Origin: an uncultured Candidatus Brevefilum sp.
Lineage (GTDB): Bacteria; Chloroflexota; Anaerolineae; Anaerolineales; Anaerolineaceae
Length of the DNA stretch: 40,655 nucleotides
Reading direction: 5' to 3'
Assembly: GCA_964447265.1 (NCBI GenBank)
Contig: CAYUSC010000004.1
Span: forward strand, 4,197 to 44,851
Shown: positions 10,768 through 30,840 of the stretch, in pieces
Numbering within the stretch: the first letter of the stretch is position 1
How the letters are laid out: the number at the start of each line of letters is the position of its first letter
Notes under the pieces: model-generated
The model's input: the letters and a program-made list of their open reading frames with translations, nothing else
Told to the model about the DNA's origin: nothing
Databases searched by the model: none
Translations under genes and position numbers: made by a program

Positions 10768-11794
10768 CCACCAGGGTCAACTCATCAATGAATTCGTCAA
10801 TATCGCCATCGAGAACGCCGCTCAGGTTATAGGAGGAAAGGTTCACCCGGTGGTCGGTGACGCGGCTCTGGGGGAAGTTATAGGTGCGGATCTTTTCGGA
10901 ACGTTCGCCGGTGCCGATTTGGGAACGGCGGGTGGCCGATTCCTCGGCCTGCCGTTTGGTCTCTTCAATTTCGTAGAGCCGGGCTTTCAGGACGCTCATC
11001 GCGCGCATCTTGTTCTGCAGCTGGGAGCGTTCATCCTGGCAGGCCACGACCAAACCGGTGGGGATGTGGGTGATCCGGACGGCGGTGGCGTTCTTCTGCA
11101 CGTTCTGGCCGCCCGCGCCGGCGGATTTGTAGACGTCAATGCTGATATCCGAATCGGGAATGTCGATTTCCACATCGTCCACCTCGGCCAATACGGCCAC
11201 AGTTACAGTGGAGGTGTGGATCCGCCCCTGAGATTCGGTTTCGGGGACGCGCTGAACACGATGAACGCCGGATTCGTATTTCAGGCGGGAATAGGCGCCC
11301 TTACCTTTAATAATGAAGTTGACCTCTTTGACCCCGCCAATCCCCGTCTCGTGGAGGGTGATGATTTCGCTTTTCCAGCCTTGCCGTTCCGCATAGCGGG
11401 AGTACATTCGGAATAATTCCGCGGCAAACAAGCCGGCTTCATCACCACCGGTGCCTGCGCGGATTTCCACGATGACGTTACGCTGATCACGGGGGTCCTT
11501 GGGAACCAGCATGCTCTTGAGTTCAGCTTCGAGCTTGGTTTGATGGGATTGGAGTTCTTCCATCTCCATTTCGGCCAGAGTCCGCATTTCTTCATCGTCT
11601 GCGTTCAGCAGGGAATGGGTTTCTTCGATCTTTTTGAGGGTATTCTGATAATCGCGCGCCCTGGAAACCAGGGGGTCGAGTTCCGCACGTTCCTTGGAAA
11701 GCTCGATTGCGACGGTATAATCGTCGCCGACCTCGGTCAACTGGTGTTCGATCTCTTCGTATCGCTCAATGATACCTTGTAATTTTTCAAGCAT
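10733..11794 (-). CDS. prfA: Peptide chain release factor 1
   Basis: EIRAGTGGDEA, HRVQRVPETE (PxT motif), GGQ and RSEKIRTYNFPQ. Confidence 0.97.
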   Translation of the reverse strand: MLEKLQGIIERYEEIEHQLTEVGDDYTVAIELSKERAELDPLVSRARDYQNTLKKIEETHSLLNADDEEMRTLAEMEMEELQSHQTKLEAELKSMLVPKDPRDQRNVIVEIRAGTGGDEAGLFAAELFRMYSRYAERQGWKSEIITLHETGIGGVKEVNFIIKGKGAYSRLKYESGVHRVQRVPETESQGRIHTSTVTVAVLAEVDDVEIDIPDSDISIDVYKSAGAGGQNVQKNATAVRITHIPTGLVVACQDERSQLQNKMRAMSVLKARLYEIEETKRQAEESATRRSQIGTGERSEKIRTYNFPQSRVTDHRVNLSSYNLSGVLDGDIDEFIDELTLVDESEKLALVEE

Positions 11795-28199: not shown

Positions 28200-28943
28200 T
28201 CAAAGGATCTTGCTGAGGAAGGCCTTGGTGCGTTCCTGGGTGGGGTTGCTGAAGAGGACATCCGGGACGGCCTCCTCGACGATCAGGCCGCCATCCATCA
28301 GCACAGCCCGGTCAGCGGCCGCGCGGGCAAAACCCATTTCATGCGAGACGACAACCATCGTCATGCCCTCTTTGGCAAGCTGGAGCATGACATCCAGCAC
28401 TTCCTGGATCATTTCCGGATCCAGCGCGCTGGTGGGCTCATCAAAGAGCATGATCTTGGGATTCATCGCCAATGCCCGGGCAATAGCGACCCGCTGCTGT
28501 TGGCCGCCGGAGAGCTGGCCGGGGAAATCGTTCTCCTTTTCGGGGATGCCAACTTTTGCCAGCAGGTTCCGGCCGATTTCAATCGCTTCTTCGGGGCTGC
28601 GTTTACGCACGACCTTCTGCGCAAGGGTCAAATTCTCCAGCACGGTCAGGTGGGGGAAGAGATTGAAGGATTGGAAGACCATGCCAACTTCAGTGCGGAT
28701 GGCGTTAATGTTTTCAGCAGTGGTCAGGGGAATGTCATCCACAATCACGGAGCCGGATTGGAAATCCTCCAGGCGATTGATGCAGCGCAGCAGGGTGGAT
28801 TTACCCGAGCCGGAAGGCCCTATGATCAGAACGACTTCACCGGGATAGACATCCAGGCTGACTCCGTTCAGCGCAGCGGTCTCACCAAAGTGTTTGTGCA
28901 GGTTATTAACTTGAATGATGGGGGTGGGGGTGGAAGAAGTCAT
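28200..28943 (-). CDS. Polar amino-acid ABC transporter ATP-binding protein (GlnQ/HisP type)
   Basis: [35 protein letters not shown] and [13 protein letters not shown] 28943 after GGAGG. Confidence 0.93.
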
Positions 28944-28944
28944 T

Positions 28945-29757
28945 TTAGCGTTCCTCCGTTTGGGTTTTGCGTTCAATCCAGGCAACGACTCGGGCGGAAA
29001 TCAGGGTCATGATAAGGTAGATCAGGGCGATCATCAACCAGGTCTCGACCGGCATAAAGCTGGCCGCCATGAATTCTCGGCCTCGTCGGGTGATATCCGC
29101 CACGGAGACTACACTCACCAGCGATGAGTCTTTCAGCAGTGAAATGAATTCGTTCCCAACCGGCGGCAGAACGGTTCGAAAGGCCTGGGGGAGGATCACA
29201 AAGCGCATCGCCTGGTTGTGGGTCATACCCAGGCTGCGCGCGGCTTCGTTTTGACCTTTGGGGACGCTCTGAATGCCGGCTCGATAGATTTCGCTCATAT
29301 AAGCGGAGTAGCAGAAGGTCAGGCCCAAAATGGCCATCGCAAAGGGATTTGCCAAATAGCGCTCGAAGGGTTCGTAGTTGATCAGTTCACCAAAACCTTG
29401 AATAATGGAAGGGAAGGCAAAATACCAGAATAATAATTGGACCAGGAGTGGGATGCCGCGGGCTACTTCCACGTAGACGGTGGTGACCCAGCGGACGGCG
29501 CTGTTCTTTGAAAGACGGCCCAGCGCTGTGAGCAAACCCAGCACCAGGGTCAGGACAAAGGCGGTAATGGTGACGCCAATGCTCACCAATAAACCGTCAC
29601 TGACGAATTTGATGATCCGCCAGTAAGGGTCAGGTTCAAGACCGGCCAGAAGGGCGACAATCGCCACGACCGCAGCAACCAGCCACCACCAGCTGTCAAT
29701 TCGATGATTGGCAACCTCGAACCCCGGGACTTTTTCTAGTTCTTTTCGGATTCGCAT
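28945..29757 (-). CDS. Polar amino-acid ABC transporter permease
   Basis: [38 protein letters not shown] and LLKDSSL. Confidence 0.93.
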
Positions 29758-29831: not shown

Positions 29832-30581
29832 TTATTCGGCCGAGGTGGTGTACCATTTGATGACCAGTTCCTCGATGAAGCCTTCAGCCTGAAGTTCGGC
29901 GAGGGCAGCATTGACCTGGGAGATCAATTCATCATTTCCAAGACAGAAAGCAATGCCGTATCCTTCATCGGTGAAGACATCGCCCACAACCTTCAGGTTC
30001 GCGGCGTTGTTGTTGACGAACGCCACAGCCGTGGGGTAATCCGCAACGACAGCGTCCACCTGCCCATTGGCCAGGTCGAGGAAGGCAAGCTCGTAGGTGT
30101 CATAGGTCTTGAGGGTGGTATCAGCGATGGCTTCAATTTCCATTGCGCCAGTGGTACCGAGCTGAGCGCCAACGGTTGCGCCGACCAGATCTTCAGGGCC
30201 ATTGATGGTCTCGTTATCCGCCTGGACAACGACGATTTGTCCGGCGTTGATGTAGGGATCTGAGAAGGCGAACTGTGCGGCCCTGTCGGGTGTGATCGTC
30301 ATGCCGGAGATGGCCATGTCATATTGGCAGTCGGCCATACCGGCCAACAGCGGGTCCCAGGCCACGTTCTGGAATTGGATATCCAGACCGGCTTTTTCGG
30401 CGATGGCGTTCATCAGGTCAATATCAAACCCGATGATCTCTTTGGTTTCCTCGTCCACCATTTCAAAAGGTGGGAAGGCGGCGTCCGTTCCAACGACCAG
30501 GGCATCGGAGGATTTGGCACAGGAGGCCAATAGACTCAGGGCAAGGATGGCTACAAGTGTGATCAAGATTTTCTGCTTCAT
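29832..30581 (-). CDS. Basic/polar amino-acid ABC transporter substrate-binding lipoprotein (family 3)
   Basis: Lipobox LASC; GTDAAFPPFE, GFDIDL, SGMTITPDR, FSDPY and GAQLGTTG. SD GAGGAG. Confidence 0.92.
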   Translation of the reverse strand: MKQKILITLVAILALSLLASCAKSSDALVVGTDAAFPPFEMVDEETKEIIGFDIDLMNAIAEKAGLDIQFQNVAWDPLLAGMADCQYDMAISGMTITPDRAAQFAFSDPYINAGQIVVVQADNETINGPEDLVGATVGAQLGTTGAMEIEAIADTTLKTYDTYELAFLDLANGQVDAVVADYPTAVAFVNNNAANLKVVGDVFTDEGYGIAFCLGNDELISQVNAALAELQAEGFIEELVIKWYTTSAE

Positions 30582-30661: not shown

Positions 30662-30680
30662 CAGCTTCTCCTCAGGTAAC

Positions 30681-30711
30681 AAAAAAGACCTTCCATTGGA
30701 GGAAGGTCTTT
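30681..30711 (-). terminator. Attenuator terminator in the ABC operon leader
   Basis: Minus strand AAAGACCTTCC-tccaat-GGAAGGTCTTTTTT. No full-length gene lies upstream on this strand because gntK is divergent. Confidence 0.85.
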
Positions 30712-30737
30712 GGTGTACGCTAGTAGATTGCGTTCAG

Positions 30738-30821
30738 TTAAGCGCCAAGCGCCGCTCCTCCGGATGAAGGTCGGTTATGATGATGCTTTCGCTTGAGTTC
30801 CTGAACGAATATCTTTGTCAT
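30738..30821 (-). CDS. Attenuator leader peptide, 27 aa, MTKIFVQELKRKHHHNRPSSGGAALGA
   Basis: ATG 30821 to TAA 30738. Three tandem CAT codons (30785-30777) are preceded by AAG CGA AAG. The stop is 26 nt before the terminator. Confidence 0.75.
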   Translation of the reverse strand: MTKIFVQELKRKHHHNRPSSGGAALGA

Positions 30822-30831
30822 AATTGGTTCG

Positions 30832-30840
30832 ATTTTAGCA
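30832..30840 (-). promoter_or_regulatory. Extended -10 promoter for leader and ABC operon
   Basis: Minus strand TGCTAAAAT, 10 nt upstream of the leader ATG. Confidence 0.6.

Follow-up and report, generated by a model that had tools for sequence, protein, structure and literature searches.

Introduction

The leaders thrL (Thr/Ile) and ilvL (Ile/Leu/Val) are multivalent attenuators, and in the leader peptide of the Thermus thermophilus lysine cluster, Lys codons control termination. Arginine synthesis is usually under the control of ArgR or of T-boxes. The Anaerolineaceae are abundant in anaerobic digesters and sediments, and regulation in this family is barely described.

The mechanism of leader-peptide attenuation is that of enterobacteria, as outlined for hisL and trpL in PMC9413887. 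Other systems, as summarized in the respective sources, include Rli60 of Listeria, a leader that integrates several amino acids (PMC5864092); the lysQ permease of Lactococcus lactis, for which a His attenuator is predicted (PMC4833913, citing Lopatovskaya 2010); orf34 of Salmonella speF, a leader ORF whose Arg codons sense arginine via ribosome pausing (PMC6386406); and the polycysteine leaderless sORF attenuators of mycobacteria, of which there are several per genome (10.1101/834739). His attenuators are given for Firmicutes, and none is given for Chloroflexota, in the excerpts of PMC9413887 and PMC2965389 on which we draw. The open-licence literature yielded no attenuator of an Arg/Lys/His importer and no classical attenuator of argG; subscription papers may list Chloroflexota leaders.

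Here, we describe a leader found in a window of 40,655 nucleotides from an uncultured Candidatus Brevefilum sp. (Anaerolineaceae). The leader precedes three genes of an ABC importer:

29832–30581, minus strand: substrate-binding lipoprotein of a polar amino-acid ABC importer, ArtJ-like
28945–29757, minus strand: ABC permease of the HisM/GlnP family
28200–28985, minus strand: ABC ATPase, GlnQ-like, with the true start likely the ATG at 28943

The leader probably acts as a multivalent, ribosome-mediated transcription attenuator that couples expression of this ArtJ-like importer to the supply of Arg, Lys, and His.

Anatomy of the leader

The leader is composed of a promoter element, a short ORF, a set of alternative RNA pairings, and an intrinsic terminator, as follows:

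30832–30840, minus strand: extended −10 element TG-n-TAAAAT, with TG at 30840–30839 and TAAAAT at 30837–30832
30738–30821, minus strand: leader ORF of 27 codons, MTKIFVQELKRKHHHNRPSSGGAALGA, with its ATG at 30821, 10 nt past the −10
30771–30794, minus strand: control window, codons 10–17 (K R K H H H N R), both Arg codons being CGA
30801–30807, minus strand: 5′ strand of protector stem P1, with its partner at 30737–30731, directly past the stop; three of five pairs show double changes
30790–30794, minus strand: 5′ strand of protector stem P2, AAGCG, with its partner CGCTT at 30744–30740 or 30751–30747
30752–30774, minus strand: protector hairpin P3/P4, hiding GGAGG; 98% of alignment cells are paired, with double changes in two pairs
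30698–30761, minus strand: antiterminator, in which GGAGGAG-CGG (30761–30752) pairs with the terminator 5′ arm and loop (30706–30698); the inner pairings are UUGG/CCAA and CGCU/AGCG
30681–30711, minus strand: intrinsic terminator with an 11-bp stem (30711–30684), a 6-nt loop, and a U tract
30668–30673, minus strand: GGAG, a second Shine-Dalgarno-like sequence, found in 30 of 31 genus leaders

An earlier sequence-only reading had drawn the −10, the 27-codon ORF, the terminator, and three segments of the minus strand, GGAGGAG (30761–30755), GACCTTC (30772–30766), and TTCCTCC (30704–30698), and each of its coordinates and the translation are correct.

A consensus promoter scanner did not call the leader promoter because there is no −35 match. 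From the position of the −10 element, transcription is predicted to start 3–4 nt upstream of the leader ATG. Among 1706 ORFs genome-wide, −10 boxes are most frequent 6–7 nt upstream of the ATG (40 and 23 ORFs, versus 3–31 at other distances). Leaderless initiation therefore probably operates in this genome, and the leader ORF would have a leader of 3–4 nt. A single RNA run spans 170 nt of the binding-protein gene, with the leader outside. No Rfam family matches the window at its gathering score, the best relevant sub-threshold match near the leader being Phe_leader (20 bits versus 55).

The second GGAG is located 8–11 nt downstream of the terminator, and eight genus leaders have a start codon behind it, none of which is conserved. 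In the window, this GGAG (30673–30668, minus strand) precedes a 4-codon ORF starting Met-Arg(CGA). The GGAG could serve as an mRNA stabilizer or as a further pairing partner.

Conservation within the genus

Searches of genus genomes with the binding protein and the leader yielded 14 leaders, one at each orthologue locus for which assembled upstream DNA was read. Scanning metagenomes for a motif added 28 loci, of which 18 leaders were left after removal of four chance matches that lack a transporter (L183, L189, L194, L197), five duplicates, and one truncated locus (L182). L195, which has a 1-nt insertion, is otherwise as L176, and lies on a contig that ends inside the terminator, was left out, and 31 distinct leaders were kept. 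Because 18 of the 32 leaders were found with the 3′ motif, its invariance in part reflects how they were selected, which leaves the start, the frame, and the control codons unaffected. Among the matches listed, leader-bearing named records are labelled Brevefilum, Anaerolineaceae, and Chloroflexota. A contig scan with a loose pattern gave mostly chance matches.

The same layout is present in all 31 genus leaders. The distance from the −10 hexamer to the ATG is 10 nt in 31 of the 32 leaders and 9 nt in the other, with the search script demanding a box at 9–11 nt. Despite indels of 3, 6, or 9 nt, 28 of 31 leaders remain in frame to the TAA, and the distance from the ATG to AAGCGA is 24, 27, 30, or 36 nt. 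No leader has an internal stop in frame 0, whereas 30 and 24 of the 31 have one in the other two frames. The Lys-Arg pair AAG-CGA is in frame in 31/31 leaders, and the second Arg is present in 27 of the 28 in-frame leaders. As the CGA codons and AAG lie in stems, their invariance in the genus has an RNA explanation too.

Spacer His codons are enriched in frame: there are 36, versus 4 and 0 out of frame and 9.3 ± 2.8 in shuffles. This enrichment, together with the three tandem His codons 15 nt upstream of GGAGG in the window leader, would fit a hisL-type attenuator that senses His and controls a His importer, which is how the sequence-only reading took the locus. The length of the His run, however, ranges between 0 and 4 codons, with no His in the spacer of 14/31 genus leaders and at least two in only 11, and it is Lys-Arg(CGA) that is invariant; moreover, the leader has no match to Rfam His_leader, and the downstream genes are not those of his biosynthesis. 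That reading had also called for a conserved His/basic upstream ORF in front of orthologues: the ORF with basic codons is conserved, the His codons are not. His thus fails as the defining signal, and a purely His-sensing attenuator is very improbable.

Two further explanations draw on the conservation of the genus leaders at the nucleotide and peptide levels. The first is a metabolite riboswitch, e.g. for arginine, with P1–P4 as the aptamer and the ORF incidental: a large number of synonymous positions do not vary, and covariation is seen in the fold. Against this, linker indels come in threes, Rfam gives no match, and the 3′-motif invariance is in part the product of the motif-based search noted above. 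The second is an arrest peptide of the TnaC/SpeFL type, whose C-terminus would, at high ligand, hold the ribosome at the stop and so favor termination: among genus leaders, the C-terminal RTSPGGAALGA hardly varies, and there are several synonymous changes within it. Three leaders from two lineages, however, are frameshifted after Lys-Arg, which alters the peptide, yet the stop lies only 4 nt later. Both explanations are weighed again below against leaders of other genera.

Leaders in other genera

Binding-protein matches are found in 138/251 genomes of the family. Of 145 non-genus places, 106 were read, six of them loci with <400 nt upstream, using a filter (box, short ORF, and terminator) that is blind to codon content. 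It was passed by 25/106 orthologue loci, from 11 other genera; a 26th leader, L291, was recognized by eye and by profile and is not counted among the 25, and no leader was seen at the other 80 of the 106 loci. In the contig of the window (G000:C4), the filter was also passed by a box, a 36-codon ORF, and a hairpin at 10983–10880 on the minus strand (contig position 10983), before the gene of a 621-aa GTPase (6605–4740); there is no control-codon run, and this match is probably due to chance.

The non-genus leaders diverge widely in nucleotides and C-termini, e.g. MININLTTRHHKHTHSQALKGRSILLIS, MFPYLEIKRMRHHPPHSLKGWVVCA, and MDIQLFAKRTKKNFPTFPQEDRLVVLKQ, and range from 17 to 31 codons in length. 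Within codons 8–17, all 25 leaders have Arg, 22 have Lys, and 18 have His, the other seven being without His. The Arg codons are CGA (28), CGC (13), CGT (6), and AGA (1), so the residue is kept rather than one RNA word. Because these leaders retain the ATG, the frame, and the K/R/H codons and do not retain the nucleotides or the C-termini, they take the riboswitch, arrest-peptide, and His-only readings out of serious contention: we rate the riboswitch as highly unlikely, and, with C-termini and lengths that differ freely, an arrest peptide is equally implausible.

Control codons and related leaders in the family

The composition of codons 8–17 is nearly the same in the genus (R 19%, K 18%, H 13%) and in the other genera (R 19%, K 15%, H 13%), and K/R/H make up 47–50% of these codons versus 16% in the background. 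Each of the three residues exceeds both other frames and all 1000 nucleotide shuffles, although the leaders are related and the shuffle counts therefore overstate. Of 1394 box-plus-ORF sites that serve as background in the own genome, 59% have Arg, 38% Lys, and 20% His, and 21% have at least three K/R/H codons; three or more are present in 31/31 genus and 25/25 other leaders. Arg is the only residue found in the control window of all 56 leaders; Arg, Lys, and His occur together in 20/31 genus and 15/25 other leaders. From this distribution, Arg is most likely the constant input and His the variable input. The sequence-only reading had suggested in passing that several basic amino acids may be sensed by the mixed Lys/Arg/His run, and this suggestion becomes the main point.

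Leaders of like layout precede other genes in the family. An Arg-run leader is found before argG in most family members read: 20/29 loci passed the filter, and seven of the nine that failed have Arg pairs and a terminator by eye. Codons 8–17 of these leaders contain 34% R, 1% K, and 3% H (Lys 2 and His 5 of 195 codons). The argG leaders are near-leaderless and lie about 150–230 nt upstream of argG (L341, L351–L377), ahead of argGH, and are a candidate classical attenuator of arginine biosynthesis across the Anaerolineaceae. Lys leaders precede homocitrate synthase in 9/30 loci, one of the nine being doubtful and 11 of the loci being internal genes; their composition is K 28%, R 3%, H 1%. In the lysine-pathway leaders, a KKxxKK motif is followed by a terminator (L381–L384, L386, L402, L403, L408). 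Two genus his operons have near-leaderless His-run leaders with terminators, before hisD and hisG, and in the own genome, a leaderless Tyr-run leader precedes tyrS and a Met leader precedes metG, each with a terminator:

L217, 1138–1300, plus strand: His-run leader
L218, 2010–1860, minus strand: His-run leader, with hisG split over two frames
G000:C21, 16210, minus strand: Tyr leader (L259)
G000:C52, 2055, minus strand: Met leader (L260)

Compared with the argG, lysine-synthesis, and his-operon leaders, only the importer leader mixes Arg, Lys, and His. A profile of the importer leaders gives weak matches to the argG leaders, with a best E of 5e-6 and nine matches <0.002 among 31 loci; it also matches one lysine locus (E 9e-5) and one his leader (E 0.006). 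This signal, which is partly terminator-driven, is suggestive of shared descent of the importer and argG leaders.

The main rival to the multivalent reading is an attenuator that responds to Arg only, in which the Lys and His codons would result from stem P2 and from an unpaired linker rich in A and C. The position of Arg as the one residue common to all control windows, the RRR of two importer leaders (L274, L294), the profile match to the argG leaders with the common descent that it suggests, and the binding preference of GsArtJ described below are all in keeping with it. It does not readily account for the argG leaders, which have the same layout and are nearly without Lys and His, whereas the importer leaders have 15–18% Lys and 13% His, in frame only; nor for the co-occurrence of the three residues in 20/31 and 15/25 leaders. 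We consider an Arg-only attenuator unlikely.

The multivalent importer leader may belong to a larger system. On balance, and by a modest preference, we favor a model in which a matched set of near-leaderless attenuators runs basic-amino-acid homeostasis in the Anaerolineaceae without ArgR: Arg-run leaders for argGH, Lys leaders for the lysine pathway, His leaders for his operons, and, derived from the argG type, a hybrid importer leader that would act as an Arg/Lys/His OR gate with its codon mix retuned by lineage.

Several side observations concern these leaders. L274 and L294, the importer leaders with RRR, stand beside Arg-run types. In L349 (G138:C9:492000-509500), argGH is separated by 9 kb from the ABC importer, which is encoded on the opposite strand; both have an Arg-rich leader of their own, and the neighborhood recurs in G085. 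CGA accounts for 8.5% of Arg codons genome-wide versus 58/59 in the genus control window. The genus tRNAs comprise tRNA-Arg(GCG) and a dedicated tRNA-Arg(UCG) in place of the inosine type (G000; L221–L223, L225, L228); tRNA-Arg(UCG) was found in 5/5 near-complete genus genomes, so CGA is not an orphan codon, and it was not found in the own assembly, which is 93% complete. The own genome also has T-box leaders, two over the Rfam cut-off (G000:C32:24362 and C191:2883) and four weaker places, and T-boxes and attenuator leaders thus coexist in one genome.

RNA folding and covariation

The leader folds at −47.4 kcal/mol (z −4.1), with none of 200 shuffles as good. In the naked leader, the predicted protector spans codon 5 to just past the stop. 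The sequence-only reading had proposed a hairpin that sequesters GGAGG; the sequestering is borne out, and the structure is larger than proposed, comprising P1–P4. On the 31-row alignment, the protector is 92% paired and has double changes in 13 cells, a number that none of 500 shuffles reaches and that exceeds every slid control. Cognate P1 duplexes surpass swapped ones in stability (62/20000 permutations; 17 non-redundant leaders). The antiterminator pairs are conserved, with 94.7% of cells paired on the genus alignment, and no covariation beyond shuffles is seen for them there. Of the covarying stems expected for orthologue leaders, those of the protector are seen and those of the antiterminator are not.

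The effect of a ribosome was modeled by masking transcripts that end before the terminator 3′ arm, with the 5′ arm counted as sequestered at P > 0.5. For A-sites from Lys10 to the second Arg, the arm is predicted to be sequestered in 28–31 of the 31 genus leaders, compared with 0/31 two codons past the second Arg, 4/31 at the stop, and 7/31 in the naked RNA. In silico, a ribosome that has gone beyond about codon 17 thus no longer frees the antiterminator, and the permissive window before that point, which holds for masks of 10, 13, and 16 nt, coincides with the K/R/H cluster. The predicted antiterminator, with the UUGG/CCAA extension that had been drawn from the window alone, forms once codons 4–17 are masked. 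In the non-genus leaders, the window recurs at codons about 9–16, with the arm sequestered in 25/25 at codons 13–15; the naked RNA already sequesters it in 15/25, and the off state is less clean. The same threshold of P > 0.5 is reached by 44% of shuffled controls. At equilibrium, the terminator of the full-length leader prevails even under the ribosome mask (P 0.82–1.0), so read-through would need kinetic trapping. The logic of a leader-peptide attenuator with three alternative pairings, as originally put forward, is supported, with the antiterminator as a predicted structure.

The importer and its predicted ligands

The best named matches of the binding protein are AncQR, Thermotoga ArgBP, and GsArtJ, and the best match of its N-terminal lobe is GsArtJ (E 3e-23). 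GsArtJ (PDB 2pvu/2q2a/2q2c) and Thermotoga ArgBP (4prs) belong to the same binding-protein family, and alignment with them shows the F/W sandwich and the Asp, Ser-Gly, Arg, Gln-x-Gly-Thr-Thr, and Asp motifs; F36/W75 corresponds to the F31/W68 sandwich of GsArtJ. Among 25 genus proteins, no variation occurs at D33, S92, Q140, T143-T144, or D181. As described in 10.1101/350942, the ligands of GsArtJ are Arg, Lys, and His, with Arg bound most tightly. In contrast to GsArtJ and ArgBP, the binding protein falls below the NCBIfam cut-offs, none of which it passes, with Gln-binding families scoring almost as high as the basic-amino-acid family, and its ligands are predicted ones: it resembles an ArtJ/LAO-type binder of Arg, Lys, and His. 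HisJ scores 69 bits versus 175 for the Lys/Arg/Orn family, and the binding-site residues are the same in His-rich and His-free genus members, both of which speak against a transporter dedicated to His; the earlier proposal that the transporter imports His gives way to a predicted ArtJ-type specificity. Ser92 is present in 50/51 binding proteins with a leader versus 20/74 without, a comparison confounded by one large leaderless clade; the binding-protein tree is a quick tree only.

A need for uptake is suggested by the gene content. The genes argG, lysA, and ArgR were not found in 5/5 genus genomes searched, hisG was not found in three of these five, the own genome among them, argG was found in 0/12 genus genomes of a wider draw, and the own-genome match to homocitrate synthase is below the cut-off. 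The own genome thus appears to be without Arg, Lys, and His synthesis pathways, and auxotrophy is graded as likely because the assembly is 93% complete.

Proposed mechanism

In the multivalent attenuator, the transcript would start 3–4 nt before the AUG, and a ribosome would load almost leaderless. When amino acids are plentiful, the ribosome would reach the stop and cover or pass the segment from GGAGGAG to the stop, and the terminator would form; with no ribosome, the protector P1–P4 would likewise lead to termination. When charged Arg-, Lys-, or His-tRNA is short, the ribosome would stall at codons about 10–17, melting the 5′ strands of the protector, and GGAGGAG, left accessible, would pair with the terminator 5′ arm and loop while the 3′ arm is still to be transcribed. 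RNA polymerase would then read into the binding-protein, permease, and ATPase genes.

Comparison with known systems

The switch is of a known type; as far as the open-licence literature goes, the three-input version for basic amino acids and a classical attenuator of bacterial argG are new. If correct, the multivalent reading extends classical attenuation to multi-input sensing of three basic amino acids and to ABC uptake. From the leader codons, ligands could be predicted for a transporter clade that is unannotated, and natural variation between 0 and 4 His codons allows direct tests of the rules of multivalent sensing.

Lys codons control a biosynthetic operon in the Thermus thermophilus lysine leader, which differs from the importer leader in this target and in its single amino acid. 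Similar to thrL, ilvL, and Rli60, the importer leader would integrate several amino acids in one leader; those systems, as far as the Rli60 source describes them, control branched-chain or aspartate-family biosynthesis, whereas the inputs here are three basic amino acids and the target is uptake. The predicted L. lactis lysQ attenuator, as cited, shares the leader-peptide control of an amino-acid transporter and differs in that it would respond to a single amino acid and control a secondary permease, and is found in Firmicutes. As reported for speF, orf34 acts through Rho, RBS occlusion, and RNase G, has no intrinsic terminator, and controls ornithine decarboxylase. The polycysteine sORFs, as described for mycobacteria, are likewise leaderless short ORFs that act as amino-acid sensors; they differ in sensing cysteine and in controlling translation by sequestering the RBS. 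The likeness to hisL and trpL comprises a short ORF with control codons, a protector, a predicted antiterminator, and an intrinsic terminator, with stalling predicted to lead to read-through. In contrast to hisL and trpL, the importer leader is near-leaderless, has a mixture of Arg, Lys, and His codons rather than a run of a single residue, controls an importer, and is found in Chloroflexota.
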